This document shows, in pieces, positions 2,982 through 29,629 of a stretch of DNA of 64,000 bases. Origin of the DNA: Myxococcota bacterium (GTDB taxonomy: Bacteria > Myxococcota > XYA12-FULL-58-9 > JABJBS01). Every line of letters begins with the position of its first letter. Positions within the stretch are counted from its first letter, which is position 1. The stretch spans positions 24,872 through 88,871 of the forward strand of contig JAYZAY010000054.1 of NCBI GenBank assembly GCA_036339465.1, given 5' to 3'. The position numbers and the translations under genes are program-made. Under the pieces are notes generated by a model. The model ran no database searches. It was given only the letters and a program-made list of their open reading frames with translations, and was not told where the DNA came from.

Positions 2982-4241
2982 TTAATCCACCCGCCAATAC
3001 ATGAATGACCGCGTGTTGGATAGTTCTGGGCGGTCAAAGAACGCCAGGGCTCCATCCCGCACCGCATAATCCCACTCTTCCCCGTCGTTGAGCTTATAGA
3101 ACTCAACCTCGGCGCCAAAAGTATGGTGAAACGGCGGCGTTTCGACCTTTTGAAGGGCGATACCCCCTAGAGAAAGCTGGTGAACCATTTGAATCCGACT
3201 CTCACCGGCCAACTTAAAGCCATTGAGATTCATCTGGCTGCCCACGCGCTCTTTTTGTAGGAGCCAGTAGACTTCTTTGGCCTTACTGGCCTCGGGAGGA
3301 AGCTTACAAACCAGGAGCCCCTGATTTATCTGAAACGGCGCATAGGGCATTTTCGTCCGTGAGGTTCGAATAAGGTTTTCAAGCTCATCCAACAATGTAT
3401 TGAAAAGCGGCCCTAAGCCCTGATGGTCATAAACGAGCTTCAACGAGGGAGGCTGTTTTTCCCGATAAATTGACACATCCAGGTAAAAACCATGCATTGC
3501 TCTGAAAATATCGTAGGGGTGGTAGCGAATATCCCCGTCTAAGTTCGCCAAAATGGCCTGGAATTCATAGAGCCCCCTTAAACATTGCTTCGCTGAAAAT
3601 AAACTTGCACCGCCCAAATAGTGTTCTTGGATATCGTCAACGAGGGCTTGATGAAACGCCTCTGTAATAGAATTGGCTTTTTCAAAGACATGGTCAAAGA
3701 ACGGGGAGCGTTGGGTAGACACGGTCGGAGGTATATATTCCTGGCTTAATGACCAAACCCCATCCACATCTTTTTCGAAATCCCCAAGTTTGAAGGAATG
3801 GAGGGAGGTTTCCGAGTAGGGGCTGGCTGATAACTGTATACGCTGAAGGATCTTGTCGATGCTCTCTTCATCTTCGGATTCCATGTCGCCAGAATGCAAT
3901 GTCTCAAACCCGGACTGGAGGTGTAAATAGAGAGAAACCTGTGAAGACCCAGCGATGTTCAAATTCATGGCATTGGGTTGTGTGTTTCCCGGGATATCCA
4001 CCAAAACGCCACTGGGTAAAACCAGGGTCAATTCCTTTAGGCTGACGATGCCCTCGAGAAATTGGAAAGGATCCCATTCAATACTTGCCAAACCCCATTG
4101 GGGGAGTGAAAAGTTTGTAAAACGAAGATTGCTTTCTTCCCGTAGAGAATGCTCTTGGGCATAGAAATGCTCTGGCAATAAGGCTTGCCCAATTTGCCAG
4201 TACACGCGTGCGGTCTGATGGTTGACTTTTCTTATAGCCAT
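2982..4241 (-). CDS. tssK: T6SS baseplate subunit TssK (IglD-like)
   Basis: ARVYWQIGQALLPEHFYAQE N-terminal motif, YIPP and YDHQ motifs; ATG at 4241 preferred because the ORF-track start lies inside a hairpin. Confidence 0.88.
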   Translation of the reverse strand: MAIRKVNHQTARVYWQIGQALLPEHFYAQEHSLREESNLRFTNFSLPQWGLASIEWDPFQFLEGIVSLKELTLVLPSGVLVDIPGNTQPNAMNLNIAGSSQVSLYLHLQSGFETLHSGDMESEDEESIDKILQRIQLSASPYSETSLHSFKLGDFEKDVDGVWSLSQEYIPPTVSTQRSPFFDHVFEKANSITEAFHQALVDDIQEHYLGGASLFSAKQCLRGLYEFQAILANLDGDIRYHPYDIFRAMHGFYLDVSIYREKQPPSLKLVYDHQGLGPLFNTLLDELENLIRTSRTKMPYAPFQINQGLLVCKLPPEASKAKEVYWLLQKERVGSQMNLNGFKLAGESRIQMVHQLSLGGIALQKVETPPFHHTFGAEVEFYKLNDGEEWDYAVRDGALAFFDRPELSNTRSFMYWRVD

Positions 4242-4301
4242 ATAGATGTAATGCCGATATTCGGGGTGTGGAGTCAATGGAAATCCGAAAGAGGAGAGAT
4301 G

Positions 4302-4329
4302 AAGTTCCCCACTCAAGGATGGGGAACTT
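4302..4329 (-). terminator. Stem-loop between hcp and tssK (terminator or mRNA-stability hairpin)
   Basis: Perfect 10-bp arms AAGTTCCCCA / TGGGGAACTT with an 8-nt loop, 16 bp after the hcp stop; no clean U-tract. Confidence 0.6.
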
Positions 4330-4345: not shown

Positions 4346-4981
4346 CTAAGCTGCGTTAACCTTGATTCCCCAGCCCCAGCAGGTTTTACTGTTTTTGGCA
4401 GTTGCAAAGTTCAGCGCTGACATAACATTCGCATCGGGGACCACCTCAAAATACATGTTATACATGTCAATTTTGATGTTGGGTGCGATTTGAGTGGGAC
4501 TAGATGCCAATGTCATTTGGATCGTGCCACCTTGGTCATTGATCTTCCCTTGCAGCGCAACGGCAGGAAAGCAACGCTCGAACCAGTCGGCTTCTTCTTG
4601 ATCAAATTGGCATGCCCAATAGTTGAGGTTTGCGATGTCTGACGTACCCACTGAATCTGTCTTCTTAGCCGATAGCTGATTGAAGTTGGCACTCGAGACA
4701 TAAACAGAGAAGCGGAGCGCATCACCGGCTGCGCCTCCCCAGGAGTACGAGTCCAAAATTGCGGCCACGGTTCCTGTTTTCAAGCCGGTATCGTCATCAC
4801 CAGTCAAACTAAAGTCCGGGGCACTTGTGTCGTCGTACTTATAGGGAGAGTAGACAACAATATCCGGCTCCAGGGCATAATCCAGAATGGTAAGGGTAGG
4901 TAGATATCCTACGGTCTTGTTCTCGCTCCAGTTAGGTAGACACGCTTGTCTCCAATCACACTGAACATTTGTTAAACTCAT
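4346..4981 (-). CDS. hcp: Divergent Hcp/TssD tube protein (IglC position)
   Basis: 211 aa, beta-rich, between tssC and tssK exactly as iglC is; strong AAGGAG RBS; paralogue at 17681-18295. No canonical Hcp motif, so the call is positional. Confidence 0.7.
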   Translation of the reverse strand: MSLTNVQCDWRQACLPNWSENKTVGYLPTLTILDYALEPDIVVYSPYKYDDTSAPDFSLTGDDDTGLKTGTVAAILDSYSWGGAAGDALRFSVYVSSANFNQLSAKKTDSVGTSDIANLNYWACQFDQEEADWFERCFPAVALQGKINDQGGTIQMTLASSPTQIAPNIKIDMYNMYFEVVPDANVMSALNFATAKNSKTCWGWGIKVNAA

Positions 4982-5036
4982 TATAAGCTCCTTAAATGGA
5001 AAAGTTTTCGTTCAAATCACTGTATCTTTTGTGGGG

Positions 5037-6524
5037 TTAGCCCAAACGCGCATCCACTCGAAGGTCTACATCCATACCTTCAAACTGAATATGAGGGAGA
5101 ATGGAGAGGTTACAGTGATACCAACCCACACGGCCAGGAACTTCGTTGACTTCGAGGCTATAGGCCTTGAAGGGGTAATAACGAAGCGTTAGATCGTCGG
5201 GGTTGACCACAGTGGTGATATACTTCGAAATCCAATGGTCAATTTGGTTGTAGATATAGGGCGCATCGGCGGTGCTACCTATATTGTCTCGCATAATGCA
5301 CTTGAGATAGTGCGCAATGCGACTGATGGAAAATGTGTAGGAGAGATTTGACACCAGCTGGGAATTTTCAGAATCTTTTGGGTCCTTGAAGTTGTGAGAC
5401 TTCTTAATGGATTGCACACTGAAGAAAACCGCGTCTGACGAACCCTTCTTCTGGATGAGGGGAATCAAGCCACTGTTGGCCAGCTCAAGTTCTCGGTAGT
5501 CAGGCATGGTGACTTCACATGGAAGCTTGAGTTGGGTCTCTCCGCGAAATTCGAATTTATGGCTGGGTAGTCCAGCCACCAGGCCGCCGGCCTTTGGCCC
5601 ACGAATATGCTGGCACCATCCTGACGTTTCGAAGGATTTTGCCAGATTACGGCCCATCAACAACGAAGCAGGTGCCCAAAGATAATCACTGTCCTCATTG
5701 CCAACCCTTTCTTCGAATGACACACCCTCGGCAGGATTTGTTTCATCGCTATAGGGACGTCGAGCCAGGTAGCGTGGCATTGTCAGACCGATATAGGCTG
5801 CTTGTTCGGTTTCCCGAAGCTGATTCCATCCAGCGTATTTTGGTGTGTCGAGCATACCCTCGATGTCTCGCAAGTTATTCACTTCGGCCATGGTTTCGCA
5901 TCCAAAAAATTTGGGTGAAACCGAGCCAACGAAAGGGGCATGGGAAGCCGTGGCGACTTTACCCATGGCCTTGAGCCAGAGAAGATCCTTTGGCGTATTG
6001 TTGAAATCATAGAGACCGAGGACCGAACCCCAGGGTGCCCCACCATACTGGTCATATTCGGAAACATAGATTTTTTTGAAGAATTCGGAGCCAGCAATAT
6101 CAGCGGCGTTCATTTCGAGATCTTCAAAAGCTTCTTCTTTGGACACGTCCAAAAGCCCGAGTGATATGTCTGCTTTAAAATTGACGTTATTACAGAGATC
6201 CTCAATGCCTCTCCACACCGACTCCACTTCTTGGAACGCTTCAGCGTGGTAAACTTCGTTGAGTTGATCTTCGATAAGCACATCGACTTGATTCACGAGA
6301 TCTGCGATACGCTGCTTATCAAAGCGGACGCCACCTTCGTCCATGTTGTATACAATGGTTGCAAGACTCGAGAGAAAGCGGTCTTCCTCGCTTACGTCCT
6401 CAGCCAAATCATTCATATGATTGGTAAGCATGGGTATTGGGGATTCCACTTCGCTGCTGAGCTTCACACTCGATAAAAATGAAGGTAAGTCTAATGTGAC
6501 TTCGGTATCTGTTTGATCTGCCAT
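5037..6524 (-). CDS. tssC: T6SS contractile sheath large subunit TssC (IglB/VipB)
   Basis: FQEVESVWRG, EYDQYGGAP, ASHAPF, GWCQHIRGPKAGG, SRIAHYLK and PHIQFEG motifs. Confidence 0.97.
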   Translation of the reverse strand: MADQTDTEVTLDLPSFLSSVKLSSEVESPIPMLTNHMNDLAEDVSEEDRFLSSLATIVYNMDEGGVRFDKQRIADLVNQVDVLIEDQLNEVYHAEAFQEVESVWRGIEDLCNNVNFKADISLGLLDVSKEEAFEDLEMNAADIAGSEFFKKIYVSEYDQYGGAPWGSVLGLYDFNNTPKDLLWLKAMGKVATASHAPFVGSVSPKFFGCETMAEVNNLRDIEGMLDTPKYAGWNQLRETEQAAYIGLTMPRYLARRPYSDETNPAEGVSFEERVGNEDSDYLWAPASLLMGRNLAKSFETSGWCQHIRGPKAGGLVAGLPSHKFEFRGETQLKLPCEVTMPDYRELELANSGLIPLIQKKGSSDAVFFSVQSIKKSHNFKDPKDSENSQLVSNLSYTFSISRIAHYLKCIMRDNIGSTADAPYIYNQIDHWISKYITTVVNPDDLTLRYYPFKAYSLEVNEVPGRVGWYHCNLSILPHIQFEGMDVDLRVDARLG

Positions 6525-6567
6525 CTAATTTCTCCAATTCGTTCGATTAAAATTGTTGCGTTTGTTT

Positions 6568-7113
6568 TTATTCTGCTGCGGGTTCTTCTGCTGTGGCTAC
6601 AACTTTGGTTGGGACCTTAAAGCACGTGTGATCCTTAAGTGAACTCTGAAGAGCGGAAACCGCGTCAGGGCTATCGCTTAGAGCTTGCACCAAACGACGA
6701 AAATCTTTTCGGTTATCGAGGTTTGATTGTGCTTCCAGTAGTAGCTTCTTGAGCAACATCAATCCCTTCACTTTAGGAATGGCATTTCCCACCGCGAGTG
6801 GTTCAAAGGATTTCATGGATTCAATGGGGATTTCGATATCGAGACCCTCAGAATTTTCGGCATCGATTCTATTGGGCACAGTCATTTTAATGGAAACGCC
6901 CATATCTTTGAGAACCGCATTTAAATTGGTGCCATCGAGCTGGCGAATGTTACGAGCATCTAAATCGTTTGCCCGGTCGGTGGATGTTCCCGCAGATAAA
7001 TCACCCATCACCAGCATTCTGAAGGGCAATGTAACCTCTTCTTTTTGACCTTCTACCTGAGTTTTGTAAGTAAGAGTTAGTCTGGATTTTGGAATTTCTT
7101 GATTGATTGCCAT
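6568..7113 (-). CDS. tssB: T6SS contractile sheath small subunit TssB (IglA/VipA)
   Basis: IPKSRLTLTY...LPFRMLVMGDLS...SMKSFEP; directly upstream of tssC. Confidence 0.95.
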   Translation of the reverse strand: MAINQEIPKSRLTLTYKTQVEGQKEEVTLPFRMLVMGDLSAGTSTDRANDLDARNIRQLDGTNLNAVLKDMGVSIKMTVPNRIDAENSEGLDIEIPIESMKSFEPLAVGNAIPKVKGLMLLKKLLLEAQSNLDNRKDFRRLVQALSDSPDAVSALQSSLKDHTCFKVPTKVVATAEEPAAE

Positions 7114-7352
7114 CGGTTCCCCCAAGGCGTTTAGGACTCTAAGTCATTTATCTAAAATATGTTTAGGCAGTGACATTCTTACCACTCACCCACGATCCGA
7201 ACGGAGTTCATCCGAGCACACGCCCAGGCTTCGAGTCAAGAAATTTGTTCACCGGTTAGGAAGGCTTGAGGAGGGTATGGATAAGAAGGGGCGACTTGCT
7301 TACGCTCTCCAGCTTGAGTGACAGACACTCCATGGGGGGGCGGAGAGCATAC

Positions 7353-8243
7353 TCAACTTTTCTGAGCCGTGCTGCCGTTAAAGACAGTAATTTGGTGTTC
7401 AGAAACGCTAGAAGTTCTGATCTTTTCAAAACCGAGAAAGCCAGCGTTTCCGAGAGTCGCGGAACTGGCATGCTCTTCGACCACCAATACGACTTTCAGC
7501 CACAGTGGTGTTGCTTTTAATTTAGGAAGAAGTCGAGTGGACATGCGTTGTGTTACCAAGAGTGGCCAAGCAGATCCAGTCATCTGTTTTTCGTCCCGGG
7601 AATAGAGGATTATCAAAAAGCCACAGATGGTGGCATTGAAATGCTTACCCAAAGTGGAAGATCCATCCATGACGGAGTGCCCTGTTTGAGCGCCCGAATG
7701 GGGCAGCGCGTTTTTGAAACGTTGGCGCTCAACGACGACTTTGAGTTCGGGGAAATAGAGCGAGAAGAGCCAGCTAAGCCCACTGACGGAATCAAGACCG
7801 ACCATTTTTGCGTACGCGATTTTGTGAGCATCCCAGGATTCATAGAGATGTTGATCGAGTTCCACATAGAGTAGACTGATAAAGGATCGAAGGAGTTGAT
7901 TGTCAAAGAAACGAAGGAAATTGAAGAATGGATCTGGATTTTCCAGGCCTTCAGCAATCTGCATAAAGTAGGAAGGTAAGAGTCCCCGTTGATCGTGGAG
8001 CCCTAAATTTAGCCTCACCACCACATGCTTCGGTGGCCCGTCTTTGAAAATCACTTCGTGGACCAAGGCGTTAATCGACCCGCTATCCATATTGCTTTCG
8101 AATAAAATATCGTTCAATTCATAGCCGGCCCGAGCTAAGACGCGAATCAACGAAATCAAATCAAAATCTCGGGCCCGTCGAGTAATCCTATCCTGATTCG
8201 TGGCTCGTTTGTTGGGGCCTAAGGGGGCTGTCATGGACGCCAT
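7353..8243 (-). CDS. tssG: T6SS baseplate subunit TssG (IglJ-like)
   Basis: VRLNLGL...GLLPSYF, FLRFFDNQL and LGNAGFLG motifs typical of TssG. Confidence 0.8.
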   Translation of the reverse strand: MASMTAPLGPNKRATNQDRITRRARDFDLISLIRVLARAGYELNDILFESNMDSGSINALVHEVIFKDGPPKHVVVRLNLGLHDQRGLLPSYFMQIAEGLENPDPFFNFLRFFDNQLLRSFISLLYVELDQHLYESWDAHKIAYAKMVGLDSVSGLSWLFSLYFPELKVVVERQRFKNALPHSGAQTGHSVMDGSSTLGKHFNATICGFLIILYSRDEKQMTGSAWPLLVTQRMSTRLLPKLKATPLWLKVVLVVEEHASSATLGNAGFLGFEKIRTSSVSEHQITVFNGSTAQKS

Positions 8244-8289
8244 GAGATTTCAACTCTCCTTAATTTATTCCCAAATGACGGGATGGGGC

Positions 8290-9357
8290 CTACTGTGAAA
8301 TAAAGGATTCCAGATCCACTTCGTAAAATTGTCTTAAGGTTTCCCATTTTATCCCGTCTCGCTCTTGCCAATGTCCGGAGATGGTTTGAATATTTTTATT
8401 GAGGTCCCCATAGAAATTGGCGAAGAGGGCGGGAAAATATTTCCTGGGGTCAAAGTTTTGGATCAAACCGGAGACATCATCTCCGACCAAGGCAGCTCGG
8501 TCTAATTTTTTTGCTTCCACCAAGGATTGAAAGGCTTTGAGCTTTCGAATCAAAGCCAATAGTTCGGCTGATGGTCCCTGCGTGCCAAAAAGGATATCCA
8601 ATATTTCGGATGCATCGGAGAGTTTAGCCTGTGGACGTATGGTGTCTGGGGTTGAGGTCGGGGAAAAATCCCCTTGTGATTCGGTCGATGGTGGTTTGTT
8701 TTCCTCTGACACGGACACCTCAGCATTTTCTTTCGGATTCTCTAAGTGGTGACCTAGATTTCCGAGTTCCCGAGTTAAACTGCTAAATAGGGTTTTTAGG
8801 TCAGCGGAATTGAGCTTGTCAAAGAGCCATCCTTCCAGCTCGCACACTTGCTCCAAAACCATCTGAAGTTTTTTCTCAGAAAGTCCCAAGACCCATTCCT
8901 GCAACTGTTCATCCTTCTTTAAACGATGGTATTCGATATTGCGAATGAGTTTTTCTAGCAGTGTTGCAACTGATTTAACGACATGTCTGTTCTTTTGTTC
9001 AGTTGGGCCAAAACCATCCCATGAGGATTGGAGAAAGAGTCGGAATGCTTCGCAGTGTTGGCCAAAAACAACCACACTTTCTTGGAGGAATACGTGATAT
9101 AAGTCGAAGCATAACAGCCTTATATCGAGAATGTTTTTATCGACCAACGCTTGAATTTCTTCAGAGGCTTCGAGATAGCGTTCTGTCTCGTAGAGATCGC
9201 AAATCGATTGAAAGCGTGGGTCAAGGGAATCTAGTCCGCTGACCATTTCAGCAGAAGGCGGCGGGTTACGGAGAAATTTAAGAGCTAACGTCATTGGCCA
9301 TATTTCTAACCTTAGTTTTAGAGGCTGTCCAACTTTAACGGTCTCCTTAATCTCCAT
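8290..9357 (-). CDS. iglI: IglI-family / TssA-like T6SS protein
   Basis: All-helical, LDIRLL near the N-terminus, low-complexity linker, C-terminal FDPRKYFPALFANF; immediately upstream of tssG, as iglI is of iglJ. Alternative start at 9294. Confidence 0.6.
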   Translation of the reverse strand: MEIKETVKVGQPLKLRLEIWPMTLALKFLRNPPPSAEMVSGLDSLDPRFQSICDLYETERYLEASEEIQALVDKNILDIRLLCFDLYHVFLQESVVVFGQHCEAFRLFLQSSWDGFGPTEQKNRHVVKSVATLLEKLIRNIEYHRLKKDEQLQEWVLGLSEKKLQMVLEQVCELEGWLFDKLNSADLKTLFSSLTRELGNLGHHLENPKENAEVSVSEENKPPSTESQGDFSPTSTPDTIRPQAKLSDASEILDILFGTQGPSAELLALIRKLKAFQSLVEAKKLDRAALVGDDVSGLIQNFDPRKYFPALFANFYGDLNKNIQTISGHWQERDGIKWETLRQFYEVDLESFISQ

Positions 9358-9539
9358 TTTGCCTGAGATTTGGGACTTCTACTGGCCAACACCACCGTAT
9401 ACCCCTGCGTCCTCCTACAATACTCTGTTTTTTTGATAAGCGAATTCTTTTATTTTTTATAGACTTAGGGATAGATAGCCAAGGATATGAGCCACTGAAT
9501 TTTAACCCCCAAGAAAGCGGCGGGGCGAGGGGACGTTCC

Positions 9540-9923
9540 ATGTTTTTACATAAACATTTTATCGCGAGAGATGAGAAACCCGGCAATGTCATTGAGGATA
9601 TTTTGCGGAATCTTAAATGGATATTCCAGAGCAAGCGGGGTTGTGGGTATTTCATGGAAGAATTTGGTCTCAGTGATACGGGATTTCGAACCCCGGTGGA
9701 GATGGTCGAAATTCTCAGCGACGAGCTCAAAGAGAACATCAAATTATTTGAGCCGAGAATAGAATTGCTTGAAATTATCGATGACTATTGCCCTGAGACC
9801 GGCCGGGTTTGTTTGGAGCTCATCTGTCGATTTACACAGGAGAAGGACGTCCTTACCTTGAGACTCGATCCCAGAACCAGACAGATAGAAGTGGTTCCCC
9901 TCGAAGAACTTGAGAATCGTTAA
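9540..9923 (+). CDS. tssE: T6SS baseplate TssE (gp25-like)
   Basis: EDILRNLKWIFQSKRG...EFGLSD...IKLFEPRI gp25/TssE signature. Confidence 0.85.
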   Translation: MFLHKHFIARDEKPGNVIEDILRNLKWIFQSKRGCGYFMEEFGLSDTGFRTPVEMVEILSDELKENIKLFEPRIELLEIIDDYCPETGRVCLELICRFTQEKDVLTLRLDPRTRQIEVVPLEELENR

Positions 9924-9979
9924 CCATTGAAATATCGAGTTTCTTTGTCGTGCTTTCTTTAAGAGGATGAAAATATACC

Positions 9980-11599
9980 ATGTTTATCAATCGACTTATT
10001 GTAGACCTAACGCTCAAAATCGACGGCAAATCCTACAAGATAGAATCAGGTAATATTAAAAATCTAGATCTCAAGCTGAGTGCCTATGGTTATGAAGCGA
10101 CCTTGGATTGGTGGAAAATATGCTTAAACAAATCGAGTGAAGATACCATTAAGGCCGCTTTTATGAAAAATTCTCTGATCGAAGTCACCATGTCTATCGA
10201 TCGTTTTTTCGATAAAGGTGGTGAAGCGGCAGCTCCGATTAAACTGAAAGGAATTGTCACAACCAAGCGCTTCCATGCCAGAGCGTTCGAAGATGTTAGT
10301 GGGGAACCTGTTTTACACCGTCATTATTTTATCTCATTCAAAGACCCGGCCAGTGTCTTGTGGGGCCAGCACTTTCCATGTGATCTGTACACCAAGAAAT
10401 CGGTTAAAGATCTGATTGAAGATCATAAAACCTCGAATTTCTTACTCAGTTATGCTTGCACACCCATGACGACCAAGCACCCATTTCTTTTTCTTGGGCT
10501 GGGGCAAAAGGAGAGTTCCGCGAGTTTTTATGATTTTGTGATATGGTATTTGAAAAGCGAAAATGCAGGCATGTATTATAATGGGACAAAAAACACTTAC
10601 ACACTCACAACAAAAAAAGATACGAGTGCGAAAATAAAAGATTTTCCGGTAGCAGATGCTGATATTGTGAATATAGAATTCACCGAAACGCCACGTTACA
10701 GCGTCAATGTTTTGAACAGCTATGCGACTAAATCGACCACGGAAAAAGTTGCAAACAAAGATGAAGTGAAGGGGATTCGGAAGGATATTCTTATTGCATC
10801 CCCAATTGCCAGCACTTCAAAATCAATCAAGACAAATCAAACGAGTAAACTCGTCGATGAACAACCCTTTCTCACCATTGAATACGCTCGATATCCCACC
10901 GTCGATGCATTGCCTGGCACGATCTATCTTTTTAACAAGAGCGACTGGAGCAAAGAGCTATATCAATCCAACAAGAAATTCCGACTTCGAGAACTTCGAC
11001 TTTTGGCTGAAGCTGAATCTCAATTGGGCACCGATGATGCTGACGAGGATTCAAATTCGTACAAAATTCAACTGACTTCGGTTCTAGAAGAAAAAGAAGA
11101 AGTGCATCACCCGTTACCAGAATTTGTCACACCCTATTGGCCTGCCAAAGTTGAAGGGAAAATTGTCAGCGAAATAGGCAAGGAGACCGAAGAGACTTAC
11201 CAGCTTTACGAAGATGACTCTAAATCCCTGGAGCAGTATCACGTAGAGATCCCTCTTTGGAAGAAACAAAAAATAATGGTAAATCATGACCCAAATTTAT
11301 TTCCTGGGCATTTTTATTTCCCTCTTTATAAGGACCACCGAGTGCTGGTTGATATGTCGTTCAAAGAAGCATGGATTAAGCGGCACCTTGAATGGCGTGC
11401 AGGCGCCAAACTACCAAATGATAAACAGGCTAACCACATTCTCTTTGGCAAAAACCCCAAAGACAGCACTTCCATGGTGCATGCTTATAAAGAGAAGAAA
11501 CCTGTTTTTAGCATTACGCGTCTTTTGGATAAAGACACCCAACTCATTCAAGTTTCCGAGGGGGAAATTCTTATTGAAACCAAAGAAAATGAAAAGTAA
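9980..11599 (+). CDS. VgrG hub-only protein (PdpA/gp27-like), lacking the long beta-helix spike
   Basis: 539 aa following tssE; gp27-like pattern (KGIVTTKRF, YFISFKDP, SFYDFVIW), OB-fold-like VEGKIVSE...GHFYFPLYKDHRVLV, ends after only a few beta-strands. Confidence 0.6.
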   Translation: MFINRLIVDLTLKIDGKSYKIESGNIKNLDLKLSAYGYEATLDWWKICLNKSSEDTIKAAFMKNSLIEVTMSIDRFFDKGGEAAAPIKLKGIVTTKRFHARAFEDVSGEPVLHRHYFISFKDPASVLWGQHFPCDLYTKKSVKDLIEDHKTSNFLLSYACTPMTTKHPFLFLGLGQKESSASFYDFVIWYLKSENAGMYYNGTKNTYTLTTKKDTSAKIKDFPVADADIVNIEFTETPRYSVNVLNSYATKSTTEKVANKDEVKGIRKDILIASPIASTSKSIKTNQTSKLVDEQPFLTIEYARYPTVDALPGTIYLFNKSDWSKELYQSNKKFRLRELRLLAEAESQLGTDDADEDSNSYKIQLTSVLEEKEEVHHPLPEFVTPYWPAKVEGKIVSEIGKETEETYQLYEDDSKSLEQYHVEIPLWKKQKIMVNHDPNLFPGHFYFPLYKDHRVLVDMSFKEAWIKRHLEWRAGAKLPNDKQANHILFGKNPKDSTSMVHAYKEKKPVFSITRLLDKDTQLIQVSEGEILIETKENEK

Positions 11600-11607
11600 C
11601 CTCTAAA

Positions 11608-13365
11608 TTAGGTTCCTAATTCCTCGGCATCGCTTTCAACAACTTTTTCCATCAGCATCCTCAATTCGGACAATACAGGAAATACGGTTGATTGCTGTTT
11701 GATTTGGAGATACCCGCTTCGGTATTGTTCTTCACACCAAGAGAGGTCGATTTTCCCATCTTGTTTTTCAGGGTAAAGAGAATAGAGCTCAATTTGGCCG
11801 GGAATAAATTCTGAGCCGAGCTCCATGCTTAGGACTTGATAGATTTCGCTTCTGAACGAGTTTTTATTTTCATTGCTTAATGCACCAAAGATGCCCGCAT
11901 CGAGAAATATTAGTAAATTGATAGATCCCTGTTGATATCCCTTAGCATTTTGAGCATTCAAAACCACGCAGTCGTAAACTGCTTCAAATCGACAAACCAG
12001 ATTTTGAACCTCAGTTTTAGGATACGTTCGTGCACCACGTACACCGAACATGGTGCCCACAAAATAGTTTTCTCGATGGTTTGGACGATTGAGGATGCTC
12101 AACCCGTAATGGTGTTCGTTAAAATCGAGGGCGGGGGTGCCAAAAAATCCACTGCTATCCATTTGTGATTCGGCTCCACCGCCGAAATCCATGAGACTCC
12201 AGGGATTTCCCGGAGAAGGAAATATTCGCAAATGTGATACTGATTTTAACTTTTGTCCAAATAGGATGATACCTCCATAAGCGGAATTCGCCAGGATATT
12301 CATCGCCCATCGCATCTCATTGTTGAAAAACTTAGAGAAACGCTCCCATGACTCCCAATCCATGGGCATGGCCACGTCCTTAAACCAGAGCCGTATGGGC
12401 GCTGATTCAGTAGGAGGGCGACTCAATAGCCAATCGCGGGTCCTATGGTTAAGCCCAACAACCGTTACTTCGAAACCATCTGAACATTCTGCGTTTTCAA
12501 TCAAGTGGTCGGGGTCTGTCAAAACAAAAGTTGCTCCCGAGAATAAAGACACTAAGAAGAGCCACGGTTGATATTGCAGGTCATGAAAACCAGGGGCACT
12601 CAATTTATCCCCCTCTTGAAGGCCAAAGAGAAGAAAAGCATCGCTTAAGAGTCGATGATAAAGATCACTTGCTTTTAATTCTACCGGCTCTGTGGAATTG
12701 GTACTAAGTGGCGAAAAGAGGCGCATGACCACCTGTTCTGCCTCGTAACCATGAACTTCGTGGTGAATAGAACCAAATTCAATTTTAGGAAGAACGCCTG
12801 AGGGGAGTTGTTTGTCTGCAAAATCTCCGAGAAATACTTCATACTTATTCTCAGTCACCACAAAAGCCGGTTCCAATGTGCGCAAACGGTTCTTTACAAA
12901 AGTTCGGCCCTGGGGTGGAATAAACGAAAAGATGCCGCCTAATTTCAGCGTTGTGAGCATGGCGATCAGAAAATTCAGGCCAGGATGAAGAACCACGCAA
13001 ACCACACTCCCTACTTCAAAACCTTTGTCCAGCCATTCACTGGCAACTTGTGATGCTTGTGTGGTCAAATAATCAAACGAATATTCCTGCCATCCGTTGA
13101 TGGCATCATAGAGCCGAAGAGCGGGAAGTCCCTTTCCTTGATGTGGGTGTAGTAAATCCCAAGAAAACACATAATGTTCAAATATTGAAGATTTTCGGGC
13201 GCCATGGATGCTTTGAAACTCTTCAAATAATGAGGACCAAAACGACTCCGGTTCTGCATAACTTCGGTGTAGCCAATTTTGGGGTTGAATTGTGGGTACC
13301 TCAACCCGATCAGTACGCAAGCTCGACCTTATCTTACTAAAGTCAAATTGATACTCTATTGTCAT
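11608..13365 (-). CDS. Acyl-CoA synthetase (AMP-binding/ANL) fold protein with a degenerate catalytic signature
   Basis: ACS-like N-terminus (WLHRSYAEPESFW), GFEVGSVVCVVL..LTTLKLGGIF, C-terminal EVQNLV..AVYDCVV..LGSEFIP; the TSGSTGxPKG loop is replaced by FSPLSTNSTEP. Confidence 0.7.
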   Translation of the reverse strand: MTIEYQFDFSKIRSSLRTDRVEVPTIQPQNWLHRSYAEPESFWSSLFEEFQSIHGARKSSIFEHYVFSWDLLHPHQGKGLPALRLYDAINGWQEYSFDYLTTQASQVASEWLDKGFEVGSVVCVVLHPGLNFLIAMLTTLKLGGIFSFIPPQGRTFVKNRLRTLEPAFVVTENKYEVFLGDFADKQLPSGVLPKIEFGSIHHEVHGYEAEQVVMRLFSPLSTNSTEPVELKASDLYHRLLSDAFLLFGLQEGDKLSAPGFHDLQYQPWLFLVSLFSGATFVLTDPDHLIENAECSDGFEVTVVGLNHRTRDWLLSRPPTESAPIRLWFKDVAMPMDWESWERFSKFFNNEMRWAMNILANSAYGGIILFGQKLKSVSHLRIFPSPGNPWSLMDFGGGAESQMDSSGFFGTPALDFNEHHYGLSILNRPNHRENYFVGTMFGVRGARTYPKTEVQNLVCRFEAVYDCVVLNAQNAKGYQQGSINLLIFLDAGIFGALSNENKNSFRSEIYQVLSMELGSEFIPGQIELYSLYPEKQDGKIDLSWCEEQYRSGYLQIKQQSTVFPVLSELRMLMEKVVESDAEELGT

Positions 13366-13389
13366 GGAAGTAAAACCACCATGGATCGT

Positions 13390-13842
13390 TCATCGCCCCT
13401 GGACCGCAATTTTTTGGATTTCGTGGGCACCCAATGAAATCTTTGCTTCAGAGGGCAGGGGATTTCTAAACATATAATACCAATTAGGTCCGGGATCTGT
13501 GAATAAGAAATAAACGGCGATATTGTCTTCATCGGGCGTACGGATTTCAAGATGAGAGATTTGGCCAGGGAGAAGAACTTCTTTGGATAATACGGTGCTT
13601 TCTGCCGTTGAGCGGAAGACGTTGCTGGCGATACTCTTGTAATCACTCGAAGCCAAGGCATCGGAACCCGAGCTTCGAACTACGACGTAAAATGGCTCGC
13701 CGCCGTTGGTTGCTTGTGACGTTTTCACTTGGATTCGCATCATCGATGTACATCCCGACACACCTATCCAACCACAAAGAAGAGCTACAAGTGGCACCCA
13801 TGCACTTCGGCGAAAGCTCAAGTATTGTTGATAGTATCTCAT
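13390..13842 (-). CDS. tssJ: T6SS outer-membrane lipoprotein TssJ (IglE position)
   Basis: Lipobox VSGC, TNGGEPFYVVVR and VLLPGQ; ATGA overlap with tssM. Confidence 0.75.
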   Translation of the reverse strand: MRYYQQYLSFRRSAWVPLVALLCGWIGVSGCTSMMRIQVKTSQATNGGEPFYVVVRSSGSDALASSDYKSIASNVFRSTAESTVLSKEVLLPGQISHLEIRTPDEDNIAVYFLFTDPGPNWYYMFRNPLPSEAKISLGAHEIQKIAVQGR

Positions 13843-16800
13843 TGTTGGTCCCTATAGACGATTTTCCGAGTGTTGGGAAGAATTTCGAATAGAGTCCAAG
13901 GATTCTCATATAAGACAAAACTTGCCTCAATATTGACCCGAGAATCATCAGGAATAGGTAGATCCCAAGACCAAGTATTGTGGCTATCACGAGCCTGCTT
14001 GAGCAACTCATAGAAGCTCCAATAGGAATCTTGAGTCACCATGGGTTGCGGATAAGAAGGTTGACGATTTTCGACATCGGTAAATTGCGCTCCAAGTTGG
14101 GAAACATGCCGCATGGTCCAATCAAGGTTTACTTTGGATTGAAAGGGTTTTTGATTGATATTCACGAGGGAATTCTTGCCCCAACTGAGATAAACCAGAG
14201 TCAATGTGTCACTCTGACCTTTTACCATAGGGCCAAAGGGGACCGGCTCAATGGTGAATTCTAGGTCTTTGGGGTTACCCTCTGAGTCCCATAACCTTTT
14301 TGCCAATCGTGTGGTATTATTTAAGGCAGTGATCATGTCAGAGGGCAGATGAAGTCTCCGCAATAATGATGGTTTGGCCATATACTCGCCGCCCTTCAGA
14401 ACCGTGACCGGAAGCACGTATTGATCCACCAACTGGAAAAACCGACCTAAGGTGGGATGTAAATGAGCTTCGAGTTCCTGTGGGTCGACCTCTTCAGTGC
14501 CATTGTGGTCAAAAGGAAACTTTCTCAATACGGGTCGAATACTTGGGAGGAGGTCGTGGGCCCAAATTTTGGCGACGGTTGTTTCTAGTTCTCTGAGGCC
14601 AACCAAGTACAATTGATGGATAGGGGCTAAGAAGGGTTGCCTTAGCTCTTTTACAATGCCGACACTGTTGACCCATTGGTTCACAATGTTGAGATAGGTG
14701 CCGTCCTGCCTCATAAGGGTATCGAGGGCCTGGCTCCCCACCGGGTTTAACCGGGCTTTGAGCCCCACCGCAGTGGTTGAGGTTTCTTCTGTGGCCGAAG
14801 CTGTTTCAGTTGCTGTTAAGGTGCTATGCAACTGGTCCAAAATAGCCCGATACTTATCAAACTCAGGATAGACCCCATCGGTTCTCTTCATCACTGTATT
14901 AAAAGAGCGAAACCGAGCTAGGGCATTCACCATAGGGTCAAAGAGCTCGGTTCTCGATTTTTCAAAATTGATATTGGTATTCTTATGCACAAATTGAAGA
15001 AAAGTTGTATAAGGTGAGACGGGCTGCAAAATTTGCTTAATTGCGACCAACAGACCTTCCACCGACCCCACATTTAGACGAAAAGAATGATAATAATTTA
15101 ATGTTTGTCGAGCATACTCGGAAGCATATGCATCCATTTTCCGATAGATAAATTGCTTTAATTCCCATCGGTCCTGTGGGGCTAAATCAACCGCCCCTAA
15201 AAGTTGGTCAAATTCCATGATGGCGGGGCGAATTTCTTTATTAAAGGCTGCGTGAGTATAAATGCCCTCTACCTGAGTTTTGCCTAGGAAGAGGGAGTTC
15301 CCATTATTGGTAGGATTTAAAACCACGGCCGAGTACTGAGTTGGATCCGAAAAAAAGGTCGAACCGTTTCGAGTGGCATTATGGTCCATAAAGGATTTGA
15401 CGATGTGCCGGATCCGGCTAGTTTTCATGATCGCATACCAATCGATATTTCGAATCATGAATTGGGTATCTTGAATTTTGAACTCCCAGCTCCTTGGTTC
15501 AGCTTCTTCTGCACTCGGATACTGTTTGGCTTGTTTGATTAGCCCAATTAAATTTGGCAGGGTTTCTGGGGGAGATTGCAAATCTATAAAGCGACTGCCT
15601 ACAAAGAGCTGAAGAACGGCGCCTATTTTTTCGCTCATTTCGGGGGGCAAACTATTCTGTTGGATCTGCGGAAAGAACATTTGGTATTGCTTGGTATCGC
15701 TGGCAAAGGGCGAATCTTTTAAGAGCGTTAGAATTGTTGCACCATGTCTGAATCGCTTTGCGAAAGAAAGCTCATCTAAGAGGTCAGAACCAATGGCCTT
15801 ATGTTTCTCAAGTTGCGACTTTGTGACATACTTATTGCGCTTAATGAGTTCGCGATAGGTTGAAAATGCCAGACTCCACTTTTCTAGATCTTCAATTCCT
15901 TTAGATTTAAAGGTCGTAGGTAGGGTTTTCTCCGAAAGTTGTCCAGAATGGGGTTCGAGAGTATTTTCGATATAGACTTTGATGAGTTCAGCGGGAAGTC
16001 CCGAAGCTTTTTGCCAATCATCCAAATTCTGAGAAACAAATAATCCCATAGCGTTACTGCTGGAAGCTCGTACCAAGCCTTGTAAATACAACGTTTTCAA
16101 GTGCGGGTCACTGGATAGTAAGGCCTCTTGGTAGGCGGGTTTGATTTTTGTTTCGAGAATAATTTTGGATGCTTCTTCTCGAATATATTCTTGAGCCACC
16201 CCAAGAAATTCAGGCACAAGAACATCTCGTGCGGCATAGGAAGAAACACCGGTAAAATTGGAAACGGATGCCAAATCCTTTGCTGCAGCATCTGTTACCT
16301 TTGAAACGTTTAAAACCTCTAGGGCCCGGTCAGCACGCTGCCACAGGTTTCTTTCGTAGGAGTACAAACCTACCAGGAGTGCGATCATCACGCCTGTCAC
16401 TGCAGCGGCTAAACGGCGATGCCGCAGGAGGGGAGCATCCGCCTCTAGTCCGTAATGTTCTGAACCAGCGGCGAGAGGGTTGTTGGTATTGGAAGGATAG
16501 TCTTTTGAGGTGAAATATATTCCCCCAAGAGTGGGTAGATAAGAAAGGGATTCGGGTCTCAGAAGACTGTCTAAAACCTCTGATAGGGCTCGGAATGATT
16601 CCGGGGCCGCCTTCAAATACCGAACCACCTGTTTGAATTCGTCAGCGGTGCAACCACTGAGGGCAATGGGTAGATAGGTCCCACATTCATCAAATGCGCG
16701 CTGTATACTGCTTTCTGTGGTCGATTCCGGGTGAAGAACCGTGGGGATGGCTCGATTCTTGGTGAAGGCACTAAATTCAGCGTAGCCTTGGACTTTATCC

Positions 16801-17486
16801 ATTCCCGTGATGGCTAGCCGCACTTCGACACAACCCCCATGGGCCCAAGAAAGGAGGTTGAGTTTCCCACGTATCCTTTCGGCGATCTTTTCCCGTGCAT
16901 CGGGGGTTAACGCACCCAGCTCTTCAACTGACATCACCACCACTACAGTGGGTGGAGTATTCTTGAATAATTTTTTCCACAGACGAAGGATGGCCTGTCG
17001 GGTGGGTTTTGAAGTGTCGTTGAGAAGGGAAGCTGAGATTTCTTGTAAGACCGTTTTGGAACCCAAATAGATCTTCAAGTCGACATCTTGTTCATATTGG
17101 GTTAGGAATTGATTCGCCTGACGCTGCCAATCGGTACTCGAGTCAATTAGCGCGGATTTCCCACTCCCCGACGTCCCTAGAACCACGATGGGCTTGAATC
17201 GTTGGAGGCTTCGCTGAAAAGTTCTGGGTATTTCCCGTAAGAACCGATTCCAAATCCTAGTCAGTGCGTCTTTACGCATCTTAACCCCGGATATCGGTAC
17301 AACTGGCCGCTCTTCGCTCGTGGTTTGTTCTTGTTTTGCCTCTTTCTTTTTCTTTCGCCAGTACCAAATACCGACAATCAATGGGATGAGGAGAATAATC
17401 AGCTTGAGTACGGCAGGATGAATCTTCACACCAAAGCCCTTGAGTATTTTGAAGAATGCCTTGAGTTCTTTCACGTTTCCGACCAC
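13839..17486 (-). CDS. tssM: T6SS membrane subunit TssM (IcmF/PdpB-like)
   Basis: 1215 aa, N-terminal TM helix, Walker A GTSGSGKS, second TM near aa 360, KFPFD and SYWSFYELL C-terminal motifs. Confidence 0.9.
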   Translation of the reverse strand: MVGNVKELKAFFKILKGFGVKIHPAVLKLIILLIPLIVGIWYWRKKKKEAKQEQTTSEERPVVPISGVKMRKDALTRIWNRFLREIPRTFQRSLQRFKPIVVLGTSGSGKSALIDSSTDWQRQANQFLTQYEQDVDLKIYLGSKTVLQEISASLLNDTSKPTRQAILRLWKKLFKNTPPTVVVVMSVEELGALTPDAREKIAERIRGKLNLLSWAHGGCVEVRLAITGMDKVQGYAEFSAFTKNRAIPTVLHPESTTESSIQRAFDECGTYLPIALSGCTADEFKQVVRYLKAAPESFRALSEVLDSLLRPESLSYLPTLGGIYFTSKDYPSNTNNPLAAGSEHYGLEADAPLLRHRRLAAAVTGVMIALLVGLYSYERNLWQRADRALEVLNVSKVTDAAAKDLASVSNFTGVSSYAARDVLVPEFLGVAQEYIREEASKIILETKIKPAYQEALLSSDPHLKTLYLQGLVRASSSNAMGLFVSQNLDDWQKASGLPAELIKVYIENTLEPHSGQLSEKTLPTTFKSKGIEDLEKWSLAFSTYRELIKRNKYVTKSQLEKHKAIGSDLLDELSFAKRFRHGATILTLLKDSPFASDTKQYQMFFPQIQQNSLPPEMSEKIGAVLQLFVGSRFIDLQSPPETLPNLIGLIKQAKQYPSAEEAEPRSWEFKIQDTQFMIRNIDWYAIMKTSRIRHIVKSFMDHNATRNGSTFFSDPTQYSAVVLNPTNNGNSLFLGKTQVEGIYTHAAFNKEIRPAIMEFDQLLGAVDLAPQDRWELKQFIYRKMDAYASEYARQTLNYYHSFRLNVGSVEGLLVAIKQILQPVSPYTTFLQFVHKNTNINFEKSRTELFDPMVNALARFRSFNTVMKRTDGVYPEFDKYRAILDQLHSTLTATETASATEETSTTAVGLKARLNPVGSQALDTLMRQDGTYLNIVNQWVNSVGIVKELRQPFLAPIHQLYLVGLRELETTVAKIWAHDLLPSIRPVLRKFPFDHNGTEEVDPQELEAHLHPTLGRFFQLVDQYVLPVTVLKGGEYMAKPSLLRRLHLPSDMITALNNTTRLAKRLWDSEGNPKDLEFTIEPVPFGPMVKGQSDTLTLVYLSWGKNSLVNINQKPFQSKVNLDWTMRHVSQLGAQFTDVENRQPSYPQPMVTQDSYWSFYELLKQARDSHNTWSWDLPIPDDSRVNIEASFVLYENPWTLFEILPNTRKIVYRDQQ

Positions 17487-17680
17487 TTATGCAATTTGAT
17501 TGAGACCACTACGGGGCACTTTTGGGCAAACCCCGTCGCCAGCATAACCCGCTTTGCAATGGTACTCTAGAGGGGAGATTTATCAAGAAACTCGTAGGGC
17601 AAAAAGAACCAAATTCCCATTAAAAGAACGAGGTATTCTGATGGATTTCCACTCAACCATCCAATTCAACGAGGGGCCCC

Positions 17681-18295
17681 TTATTCACCCCATTGTTTCA
17701 CCAAATTCACGGTTTTTCCTAGGGAGACTTGAAGGTTCGATTTCTTTCCTTCTTGGGGAACAACTTCAAATTCCATGCGATAGACTCCAATATTGATGTT
17801 CTCGGAAATTGGGGTCGCGGTGGATTGGGTAAAAAGCTGCATCTCGCCACGGGTGGTGTTTAAGGTGGCGCTGGCTCCCGCCGAGGGTGACTTAACGTAG
17901 GCACCGTCATACCAGGAATTAACGTCTTTATCGAAGGAGCAAATGAAGTAGTCTAGTTTCAAATTGGTATTTCGAAGTCCCTGGCTGAGTTTTGATCGGA
18001 TGGAAGCACTGGTACTTGCACTTATGTAAGCAACGATTCGGATGGGGTCAAGTTCGCTCCCCCCGTATTCAAAACTCTCCATAACACCAACACATTTAAT
18101 CGAAGATCCCTTTTGAACTCTCGAATCGGGATAGGGGTTCCAAACCTCGATATCCTGTTTGAGGTTCAAGCCACCACAGCCACTCCACTTTACCACATAG
18201 CCTAGGGTGGTGGTTCTCGCGGGATTTCGGTTGAATGCCTCTGGCCAATCACACTCAAATTTTATGACATTACCGTCTGCCACGGTTACTCCCAC
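17681..18295 (-). CDS. hcp: Second divergent Hcp-like tube protein
   Basis: Shares CDW..A, T.GY, DI.V..PY, C.FD.....W, NI.I..Y.M.FEVVP and WG with 4346-4981. Confidence 0.65.
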   Translation of the reverse strand: MGVTVADGNVIKFECDWPEAFNRNPARTTTLGYVVKWSGCGGLNLKQDIEVWNPYPDSRVQKGSSIKCVGVMESFEYGGSELDPIRIVAYISASTSASIRSKLSQGLRNTNLKLDYFICSFDKDVNSWYDGAYVKSPSAGASATLNTTRGEMQLFTQSTATPISENINIGVYRMEFEVVPQEGKKSNLQVSLGKTVNLVKQWGE

Positions 18296-18476: not shown

Positions 18477-18803
18477 CTAACAGGCAACCTTTGTCGGTGC
18501 CGGGTGTCGAGCGTAGGTGGGGCGGGCCGTTTTCACACTGGTTGTCCGCAAGCTTTCTGTATTGCAACCACCCAATCGCGTCACGCCCAGACGAGGCGGA
18601 ATAATAGTCATACCCATGGACTGATGGCGCTTAGGAAAAAGTTTGGCAACGTGGTACACCGAAAACAACGTACCGCCATTTTGCTGATTTTTCATGGGCA
18701 AATTGCCGCGTGCGCTGTATTTTAGGAGAGTATTGAGACCAACTTTGTAGTTCTTTTTAATCTCTTTTGCCGATAGCCACAGATTCATGAGACTCACCTC
18801 CAT
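18477..18803 (-). CDS. Small MerR/excisionase(BldC)-like HTH protein
   Basis: WLSAKEIKKNYKVGLNTLLKYSARGNLP...TLFSVYHVAKLF matches the HTH_17/Xis pattern. Confidence 0.6.
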   Translation of the reverse strand: MEVSLMNLWLSAKEIKKNYKVGLNTLLKYSARGNLPMKNQQNGGTLFSVYHVAKLFPKRHQSMGMTIIPPRLGVTRLGGCNTESLRTTSVKTARPTYARHPAPTKVAC

Positions 18804-22040: not shown

Positions 22041-22058
22041 TCCACCATTCTCCGGATT

Positions 22059-22439
22059 CTAATTGATTTTGACCGTAGGACATCCGGGCGCTTGGATCTT
22101 TCCCAAAGGGGAAGGGATGGGGGCCACACAGGTGAGATGGGCGGTCTTATCTCCCACACGCGCTGCGGGAAGGCCGTAGATTTTGACCTTCTTTGAACCA
22201 TCCACCACAAGCCCTGGTCCCCCCGGAACACAGGGACCCAATAGGCAAGGTGTGGTAACACTTCCGACAATCGCCGCAGGCTGGCCACCAATCAAGACAT
22301 TGGGCACCCCAACGACAATGGGCAAGGGTAAGGGAGAATGGGGGACTGGGGTTGGTACTGGAGCAGGTGGGTGAATTGGCGCATGACAGTGGGGGCTGGC
22401 CTGTTTAACTAAATCACCAACTCGAGCGGCATTGGGCAT
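22059..22439 (-). CDS. PAAR-repeat spike-tip protein
   Basis: NAARVGD, PAAIVG and PAARVGD repeats with metal-type Cys/His residues. Confidence 0.95.
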   Translation of the reverse strand: MPNAARVGDLVKQASPHCHAPIHPPAPVPTPVPHSPLPLPIVVGVPNVLIGGQPAAIVGSVTTPCLLGPCVPGGPGLVVDGSKKVKIYGLPAARVGDKTAHLTCVAPIPSPLGKIQAPGCPTVKIN

Positions 22440-26190: not shown

Positions 26191-26886
26191 TCAAAAATTC
26201 GTAGAAAAATCGATGTAGCCCACCAAAAAGAGCAAGCAATAGACACCCAACACAGTCCCTAAGCCAAAAACGTAGTATCGCCACGGAAAATCAACAAGCT
26301 CCACGCCTTGGTCATCCATGGCCTCTCTTGTTGCCGGGGTGAAATTTGGGAGGGGTATTTTGGCTTCTAGGCGGGCGAGATAATCCCCGAGACGGGCTTC
26401 TGTGTTGATGAACGCGCCCTTAAAACCATTTCGTAAACAAAAATAGAAAACTTCGAAAACCAAGGGTAGGGTCTGGGGGCGTCGCAGCAGTTCATCGGCA
26501 GTGGTGAAAAATATTTCTCCACCATTGTCAATATTGAACAATTCCTTTTGAAGTGGAGACCAGATCCGAGCCTTATCGGATAAATATTGATGCACCATCT
26601 CATCGAAATGAATGGTTAGTGGAAAGAGACAATAATAAACTTCACGTTCGGTGAGTTCTATGGAAAGCTGTTGCTTCAACCACCCGAGTCGACTTCGAAT
26701 CAACGAGCGTAGTTTGACAATATCCGCTCCTTCAGATGTCCCGTCGAGGTATTTTCCGCCGGGAAGTGAAGCCGCTTCACCTTGTAAACGTAGAAACTGC
26801 TTTTCTTCAATCAGAGCTTCTCTGCAGGCAGTCTCGGTTTCGGTTACGACCTGCTCGATTATAAACCATAGCTGTTCACCACTCAT
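26191..26886 (-). CDS. tssL: T6SS TssL/DotU
   Basis: HFDE, WSPLQKELF..DNGGEIFF, EVFYFCLRNGFKG and a C-terminal TM helix. Confidence 0.93.
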   Translation of the reverse strand: MSGEQLWFIIEQVVTETETACREALIEEKQFLRLQGEAASLPGGKYLDGTSEGADIVKLRSLIRSRLGWLKQQLSIELTEREVYYCLFPLTIHFDEMVHQYLSDKARIWSPLQKELFNIDNGGEIFFTTADELLRRPQTLPLVFEVFYFCLRNGFKGAFINTEARLGDYLARLEAKIPLPNFTPATREAMDDQGVELVDFPWRYYVFGLGTVLGVYCLLFLVGYIDFSTNF

Positions 26887-28966: not shown

Positions 28967-29629
28967 ATGGCCAGCTCCAGTAAACCGTTTGTATGTCGTG
29001 TTCTGGTGAGCAAAACCAGCGGCGTGAAAATCGAAGTCGAAAATGAGAGTGGTAAAATCACCCAAACAGTCCATATGGACGGAACCAAAATCGAAACCAC
29101 GGTTAAGGGAGAGAAAAAGACCAGTACGATTACCCAAAAAGACGGCAGTTTCGTTTTTAAAGTGAAGGGTGACAAGGAAACCAGCACCATCACCCAAACC
29201 GATGAAAAAGTTACCATCGAATGCAAAGACTACACGGTGGATGCTGAAACCATCACCATGAAATCAAAAAAGGAATTCAAGCAGGAGAGCAAAGACATCT
29301 ACTCGGCGAGTAGTACCAAAGCACTCACCGTGAAGTCCTCATCCACGGCCACGATTCAAAGCTCCAAAACCATGACCCTTAAGTCCAGTGCGGCCCTCAA
29401 TGTACAAGCGACCAGTGCCTTAGCGCTCAAGGGGCGTACTGCACAGATAAAAGCTTCTCAAAAAGCGACTATTGATGGGGGGTTGCAAGGGGAGCTTAAG
29501 GGCACTTCGGTTAAAGTGAGTGGGAAAAGCACCAATGTCAGTGGTGATATGACCCAAATCAAAGGTAAAATCACCAAGATTCAGGGGACGGCGGTGGCTA
29601 TTTCTGGTCCCGCGATCAAAATAGGATAA
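28967..29629 (+). CDS. vgrG: Short spike-only VgrG (gp5 beta-helix), Francisella-VgrG-like
   Basis: 220 aa made almost entirely of short Lys/Ser/Thr-rich beta-strand repeats, ending ISGPAIKIG; no hub domain. Confidence 0.7.
   Translation: MASSSKPFVCRVLVSKTSGVKIEVENESGKITQTVHMDGTKIETTVKGEKKTSTITQKDGSFVFKVKGDKETSTITQTDEKVTIECKDYTVDAETITMKSKKEFKQESKDIYSASSTKALTVKSSSTATIQSSKTMTLKSSAALNVQATSALALKGRTAQIKASQKATIDGGLQGELKGTSVKVSGKSTNVSGDMTQIKGKITKIQGTAVAISGPAIKIG

Follow-up and report, generated by a model that had tools for sequence, protein, structure and literature searches.

Two paralogous tube genes of predicted IglC-type fold in a type VI secretion cluster of a Myxococcota bacterium

Type VI secretion systems of the T6SS-ii kind have been placed in Francisella alone, as far as the accessible part of a 2026 review goes (PMC13584744), and the available portion of 10.1101/031039 likewise restricts them to this genus. 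According to the consulted section of a 2018 review (PMC5924787), the Francisella tube protein IglC, in the form seen in crystals, would be kept from closing into a ring by its N-terminal extension, and for this reason no structure of the assembled IglC tube was known at that time. A division of roles among tube paralogues has already been described in Bacteroides, in which minor Hcps form heterohexamers (excerpts of PMC13035841 and PMC13213661). In this study we analysed a stretch of 64,000 nucleotides from a Myxococcota bacterium (assembly GCA_036339465.1, contig JAYZAY010000054.1, positions 24,872 to 88,871 of the forward strand), hereafter called the window, in which a type VI secretion cluster spans approx. 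3 to 30 kb and contains two tube genes, A and B.

Gene A very probably encodes the main tube, and we put a probability of about 0.43 on B being a minor subunit that assembles together with A into one tube. The two-tube system is real, conserved and apparently undescribed in the literature searched: judged by titles and the openings of abstracts, with most subscription papers and supplements outside the coverage, no description of such a myxobacterial system or of a second IglC was found. Curators of NCBIfam seem to have met such clusters, to judge from the breadth of its IglI-family model.

Genes A and B and their predicted fold

Gene A (4346..4981, minus strand, 211 aa) was found directly after tssC and before tssK, and gene B (17681..18283, minus strand, 200 aa) lies 195 bp upstream of tssM on the same strand. 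This agreed with an earlier note, made from the sequence alone, in which one gene had been placed in the sheath operon and the other upstream of tssM. The two proteins were 26% identical over 203 columns with a BLASTP E value of 4e-23, a likeness far beyond chance, and a profile search of the genome returned exactly two full family copies, A and B, together with one junk match. We concluded that A and B are intact paralogues, as the note had proposed for these two divergent minus-strand reading frames. The shared motifs that it quoted were present, with the correction that one of them reads C.FD.....W and not C.FD..W. The coordinates of gene A stood, whereas those of gene B had to be shortened. 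From the listed GTG at 18295 the protein would have 204 aa, but translation most likely begins at GTG 18283, 12 bases further in, as judged from the GGGAG 5 nt upstream of it and from the agreement with the N-termini of homologues; a database protein of 200 aa (P0237) that is 100% identical to B fits this start. The start signals of gene A, an ATG with AAGGAG 6 nt before it, are stronger than those of B.

The AlphaFold2 models of A and B reached a mean predicted local distance difference test (pLDDT) score of 95.4 and 95.1, respectively. In a Foldseek comparison, a check proposed in the note, the sole match under E 0.001 for each model was Francisella IglC (2qwu), with a template modelling (TM) score of 0.66 for A and 0.65 for B. 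A structure search of 48,161 chains gave IglC a Z of 15.9 for A (root-mean-square deviation 2.9, 183 residues aligned) and 14.4 for B (3.6, 185 residues aligned), at 13–16% identity in the structural alignments. The next best matches were Hcps (Z 8.4 for A and 8.3 for B), and tube and baseplate chains of extracellular contractile injection systems (eCIS) and phages scored about 4–6 for A and B alike. The long N-terminal extension of the IglC type was present in both models. Since IglC was matched along the whole length at about twice the Z of Hcp, A and B are, by their predicted fold, IglC-type proteins outside the Pfam family, and the Hcp/IglC-like fold guessed in the note was borne out on its IglC side.

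Sequence families did not reveal this relationship. No meaningful Pfam or NCBIfam family match was obtained for A or B. With B as query against 1.84 billion representatives there were 182 matches at E 0.001, of which the best 150 were listed, and a family alignment of 106 sequences of 180–300 aa, A and B included, was made. The aligned members had no tube family match in Pfam or NCBIfam except one to Phage_tube at E 0.07. PF11550, the Pfam IglC family, matched neither A, B nor the 106 aligned members at E 0.1, and nothing in the genome at E 1; PF05638, the canonical Hcp family (T6SS_HCP), was not found for A, B, the aligned members or the genome, which is 92.8% complete. That neither gene carries a canonical Hcp signature had been noted before. 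With the family profile, no relative of solved structure was found by sequence, nor was a PHROG family or, at E 0.001, a viral structure, and in single-sequence searches with A the word-indexed search returned A alone and the Atlas model had a pLDDT of 0.27.

Distribution, descent and rates of change

The family profile was positive in 80 of 401 genomes sampled from the phylum of the window, in 2 of 22 genomes of its class and in 43 of 351 genomes of the class of G403, counts to which some stand-alone exported members contribute. The fetched contexts showed clusters that agree in their core genes but are of two kinds: either a single tube gene follows tssC, or A occupies this tssC-adjacent slot and B is found elsewhere. 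One-tube and two-tube versions were often present in the same genome. When the B profile was run on the 80 family-positive genomes, B-type sequences (at least 180 bits) were detected in 21 and A-type sequences (79–175 bits) in 19, all 19 of which also had B; the adjacency of A to tssC was checked in 14 of the 19. The two genomes with B only are cases of contig breaks, as in G101 a fragment of A follows tssC where the contig ends, and in G125 the contig end cuts B itself. In the class of G403 seven genomes had an A-type gene and B was found in six of them; here the B profile was run on 5 of the 43 genomes, and three of the lower-scoring 36 were read, all being one-tube clusters. The position of B was variable: before tssB, before tssM, after the hub gene, beside the Clp gene, or next to A in either orientation. 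Named B homologues were found in Archangium, Vitiosangium, Melittangium, Corallococcus, Sorangium, Minicystis and Labilithrix, names that by themselves make Myxococcota the probable phylum, and as all of them are annotated 'hypothetical protein', standard annotation misses these tube genes.

Stand-alone extra copies of the A type were seen in G056 and G422 (L035:9634-10287 and L116:268-936), and none of the B type was seen. In G056 the extra copy stands before a gene of 686 aa and a pentapeptide-repeat gene of 2110 aa, an arrangement resembling an orphan hcp island. Within the IglC-fold family, a large branch appears to have repeats, InlB-like domains or signals of the twin-arginine (Tat), Sec or lipoprotein type (P0032, P0038, P0050, P0068, P0060; L051:10462-12402, L052:10115-10786). 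The two of these with known context lie outside any type VI secretion cluster, and the branch looks, from sequence, like the tube fold reused in exported proteins. Apparent fusions of B to a regulator (P0290, P0091, P0052) were set aside as likely assembly chimeras.

In a quick tree of 163 rows, unrooted and built from sequences seeded by the B query, all 20 B rows of known context fell on one side of a branch with an SH-like approximate likelihood-ratio test (SH-aLRT) support of 100, and 16 A rows and six one-tube rows fell on the other; B thus appears to form one clade. The TssC tree likewise separated 20 two-tube from six one-tube clusters with support of 100. Among the 66 pairs formed by 12 clusters, conservation was higher for B than for A in 57, with a mean identity of 0.52 vs 0.42. 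The ratio of nonsynonymous to synonymous distances (dN/dS) was 0.11–0.45 for B and 0.19–0.92 for A, with A higher in all five pairs, and 0.23–0.51 for TssC in three pairs; in the two B-only pairs the synonymous distance (dS) was saturated. By these ratios B is to be regarded as a working gene under purifying selection.

Between the close relatives L054 and L055 gene A (9245-9895 and 9242-9895) showed a dN of 0.17 and a dN/dS of 0.92, and tssB, tssC and B a dN of 0.01–0.02, which suggests that gene A was swapped or is under diversifying selection there. Gene B alone is inverted in these two loci relative to L053 and L040. An invertible switch was considered, but no flanking inverted repeats stood out, and this was taken as an old inversion.

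That B is a dispensable leftover of the duplication is very improbable and already largely refuted. One-tube clusters do without B and the draft genome G725 shows none, as such a leftover would allow; however, one B clade was kept through many rearrangements in at least three distant groups, with a dN/dS well under 1 and with the higher conservation described above.

To compare rates of change, branch lengths were fitted on a fixed tree of 16 clusters (29 branches) for eight genes, giving 28 gene pairs; no p-values are claimed. The residual correlation of A and B was the highest of the 28 (r 0.80), followed by the expected partners TssB-TssC (0.76), which served as control, and putative TssG-TssF (0.57). 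Other pairs gave -0.33 (B-hub), -0.10 (B-TssF), -0.08 (B-TssC) and -0.32 (A-TssC). Four separate branches with a burst in A, one of them that of this genome, also had a smaller burst in B. In ten clusters with A and B non-adjacent, the correlation was 0.70 and ranked second of ten.

These results bear on the suggestion of the earlier note that the two genes make alternative tubes for different cargo. In a wider form of this idea each protein would make a tube of its own within one sheath, and cargo or conditions would decide between them. It would suit such tubes that B has retained the complete fold, including the hairpin common to both proteins, and is often transcribed in its own direction. 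Independent tubes, however, need not change together, as A and B do; B is found in the cluster of A with one sheath, and the stand-alone extras are of type A (G056, G422). We consider separate tubes quite unlikely.

What gene B may add to the tube

After dereplication at 85%, residues were compared across 34 sequences of A and 113 of B, with numbering from 18295. Both proteins keep the CDW start, GY, G-x-D-P, a W-x-I-x-x-x-D...K-x-W-x-E hairpin, a P and the final W. Fixed in B only are N22, R86, Q153, F155, E175, Q177 and E189, several of them at alternating strand positions where A varies; R86, Q153, F155, E175 and Q177 were present in 78–92% of the B sequences. By analogy to Hcp, such alternating residues would presumably face the lumen.

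We propose the following for the two genes. The cluster would encode a Francisella-type (T6SS-ii-like) contractile injector in which A makes up the bulk of the tube within the TssBC sheath. B would have arisen once by duplication and become a fixed minor subunit, joining A in one tube either within mixed rings or as occasional rings, and would supply a conserved inner surface that A lacks. The analysis establishes the predicted fold, the gene context, the single B clade, co-occurrence, selection and rate covariation; ring formation, direct contact of A and B, the major and minor shares and any role in cargo are inferred.

Several results weigh against this co-assembly. The A-B correlation dropped to 0.41 once the three strongest branches were removed; in a set of seven non-adjacent clusters it was 0.53, rank 3 of 28, and 0.19 when one branch was left out. 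The dS of B exceeded that of TssC in three of three pairs and that of A in two of three; as synonymous distances of A and B were often above those of tssC, part of the covariation reflects that the two genes were replaced jointly. A single genus accounts for ten of the 19 genomes with A and B, and in G725 A was present but B was not detected, its close relative G645 keeping B on another contig. A single IglC-type gene is enough for one-tube clusters and for Francisella. The Bacteroides mixed rings, in the part of PMC13035841 available to us, join two minor Hcps beside effector genes and not the major Hcp, and no effector cassette was seen beside B: in the fetched loci, a few with one side unannotated, its identified neighbours were core genes, Clp or a helix-turn-helix (HTH)-like gene. 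The conserved residues of B may instead pack on the N-terminal extension, since in crystallised IglC this extension would stand in the way of a closed ring.

The codon score of A was at the 84th percentile and that of B at the 36th, a weak bias measured against a reference of 11 reading frames picked by motif, and a promoter and terminator scan around B stayed at chance level. Contigs from RNA libraries of relatives covered A of a related cluster in four of four runs and most or all of B in two of four; these runs were chosen as having that stretch, the contigs may derive from DNA and contigs cannot rank genes, so that no conclusion on expression is drawn.

The note's first interpretation of the gene pair was a major tube plus an initiator or adaptor ring of the eCIS kind. 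A major tube with a second, specialised tube protein fits the evidence; for the initiator part, in which a single B homohexamer on the PdpA-like hub would seed the A tube like T4 gp48/gp54, we found no specific support, and hold it doubtful. B was as conserved as the hub and baseplate genes (mean identity 0.52 vs 0.51–0.54, and 0.42 for A), and one conserved face combined with one face covarying with A is what would be expected of an adaptor. In G101 B stands directly after the hub gene, only a few bases apart, and because the TssA domain (PF06812) was not found in this 92.8% complete genome, another tube primer may be needed. However, the rate of B tracked A and not the hub (B-hub -0.33, B-TssF -0.10, residuals that are biased down since A is in the background set), and B was no closer than A to the tube-like baseplate chains of eCIS and phages. 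Furthermore, one-tube clusters have the same hub without B, and the Bacteroides minor rings did not bind VgrG, as far as the consulted part of PMC13035841 states.

The median isoelectric point (pI) was 5.1 for A (n=16) and 7.3 for B (n=20, range 4.9–9.5), and B ends 2–6 residues after the last W vs 6–14 in A. A less acidic protein with a shorter tail would suit an unfired assembly factor or cap, which would bind A monomers or the tube end and, for example, manage the ring-blocking N-terminal extension or stop growth, maybe co-regulated with the HTH-like gene. This is unlikely in our view. That B covaries with A and not with the sheath would agree with it, but A shows no sheath covariation either and for that reason the test does not discriminate. 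The alignment to IglC ends at residue 207 for B and 209 for A, and the short tail of B is thus close to the end of IglC itself, which makes the tail a weak sign that B would be unable to polymerise. B is often found in its own orientation beside the HTH-like gene, yet this gene was not found in fetched clusters in which A and B are adjacent.

The HTH-like gene itself encodes a small basic protein (18477..18803, minus strand), HTH-like by eye and without family match. Among the fetched loci its homologues (L034:2816-3169, L115:191-535, L117:4886-5281, L062-L064, L066-L070) were seen only within ~1 kb of B genes, and it is possibly a local regulator.

Co-assembly of A and B can also be taken further. 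It is rather doubtful, yet conceivable, that myxobacteria carry a widespread, unrecognised Francisella-type injector, one subtype of which builds its tube from an obligate A-B pair. One subunit would change fast and be swapped between strains; the other, conserved, would allow the self-blocking IglC fold to close into rings, or else load a conserved cargo into the lumen.

The surrounding cluster and its relation to known systems

The remaining genes of the cluster were assigned as follows. On the minus strand, tssK (2982..4316, likely start 4241; TIGR03353, E 4e-94) takes the position of iglD, and a second, partial tssK copy in two pieces, 61–78% identical, was found elsewhere in the genome (G000:C57:4118-4538). 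The sheath is encoded by tssC (large subunit, 5037..6524) and tssB (small subunit, 6568..7125; TIGR03358, E 9e-39), both on the minus strand. At higher coordinates on the same strand lie a 296-aa putative TssG/IglJ (7353..8243), named from its size and position, with no family match but conserved in related clusters, and an IglI-family protein (8290..9357; NF041244, 217 bits at a cut-off of 100). On the plus strand we found the gp25-like tssE (9540..9923; PF04965 above cut-off) and the hub gene (9980..11599). The latter encodes a PdpA-like protein of 539 aa that comprises the gp27-like and oligonucleotide/oligosaccharide-binding (OB) half of a split VgrG, with an Atlas TM score of 0.73 to VgrG clusters; for its 14-sequence profile PdpA was the best PDB match (E 3.6e-5). 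The needle half of the spike would be the short VgrG of 220 aa at 28967..29629 (plus strand; NF041249, Francisella-type TssI, E 2.7e-5, below cut-off).

The minus strand further holds an AMP-binding-enzyme-like protein (11608..13365; PF00501, E 2e-8), an IglE-like lipoprotein in the role of TssJ (13390..13842; PF22361 above and NF041245 below cut-off) and tssM (13839..17486; TIGR03348, E 1e-18, below cut-off). The AMP-binding-like gene was conserved in one-tube and two-tube clusters, often beside iglE or a DUF4280 gene. Towards the other end, also on the minus strand, are a PAAR protein (22059..22439; PF05488, E 1.5e-12), a ClpB/ClpV-type ATPase (22934..25552; ClpB score above ClpV score, both below cut-off), tssL/DotU (26191..26886; PF09850) and tssF/IglH (26903..28561; IglH model below cut-off). 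A methyltransferase, the PAAR protein and a 128-aa needle-like gene (20943-22858, minus strand) follow the Clp ATPase. The cluster is flanked (29633-38123) by a zinc-finger-like gene of 276 aa, a 1217-aa gene with HEAT and cyclic nucleotide (cNMP) features and a TonB-plug gene, and similar flanks were seen in G059 and G056. The history of tssK, tssL, tssM and iglE apparently differs from that of the sheath and baseplate genes (L040, L043 vs L038 and the window), as if the membrane module had been exchanged.

By its sequence relationships the cluster is classified as a T6SS-ii-like system with some T6SS-i traits, namely tssE and a Clp ATPase in the cluster. As in Francisella, both tube proteins have the predicted IglC fold with its N-terminal extension, the sheath is IglB-like (TssC 431 bits to IglB vs 342 for the next, bit scores against solved structures and not a tree), the spike is split into a PdpA-like hub and a truncated VgrG, both weak in sequence, and IglI, IglE and IglH counterparts are present at the levels given above. 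Absence of a detectable TssA domain is shared as well. An IglG-type DUF4280 tip occurs in the clusters of relatives; in this genome the protein of a relative gave no tblastn match, and PAAR is there instead. Francisella differs in having a single IglC-type gene vs two here, and the window differs in its clear tssE, the Clp ATPase inside the cluster, a true PAAR, the conserved AMP-binding-like gene, and tube proteins so remote in sequence from IglC that they escape its Pfam family. Among 25 cluster proteins, to which this search was limited, no NCBIfam match to the Francisella pathogenicity island effectors IglF, PdpC, PdpD and PdpE was found.

The canonical system of Myxococcus xanthus (MXAN_4800-4813) shares the probable phylum and a contractile TssBC sheath, but canonical Hcp (5urw) gave A and B a Z of 7.2–7.6 only, vs 14–16 for IglC, and TssC scored 330 bits vs 431 for IglB. 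The tube initiators of eCIS and T4 (the gp48/gp54 role) are alike in being a second tube-fold gene of a contractile system; B differs from them as a recent-type paralogue of the main tube gene. The family supplies hundreds of IglC-fold sequences, many from culturable, named soil myxobacteria, and as these carry one-tube and two-tube versions, the assembly of an IglC-type tube becomes testable there, in hosts that are harmless.

The closest parallel for a division of labour is the T6SS-iii of Bacteroides fragilis GA3 with its Hcp2-Hcp3 heterohexamer (PDB 9vnd), which also has several tube paralogues per locus and co-evolving pairs (accessible parts of PMC13035841 and PMC13213661). It has five Hcps vs two tube genes here, and its mixed ring is, in the same excerpts, of minor with minor subunits, variable and tied to neighbouring effectors, whereas B is the more conserved tube gene, is neighboured by core genes and has an IglC-type predicted fold; the models of A and B matched 9vnd with a Z of 4.3–4.9 only. 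The locus would thus probably be a second, independent case of labour division among tube paralogues, and an obligate A-B pair, if true, would make a two-subunit contractile tube unlike both the single-Hcp tubes and the cargo rings of Bacteroides.

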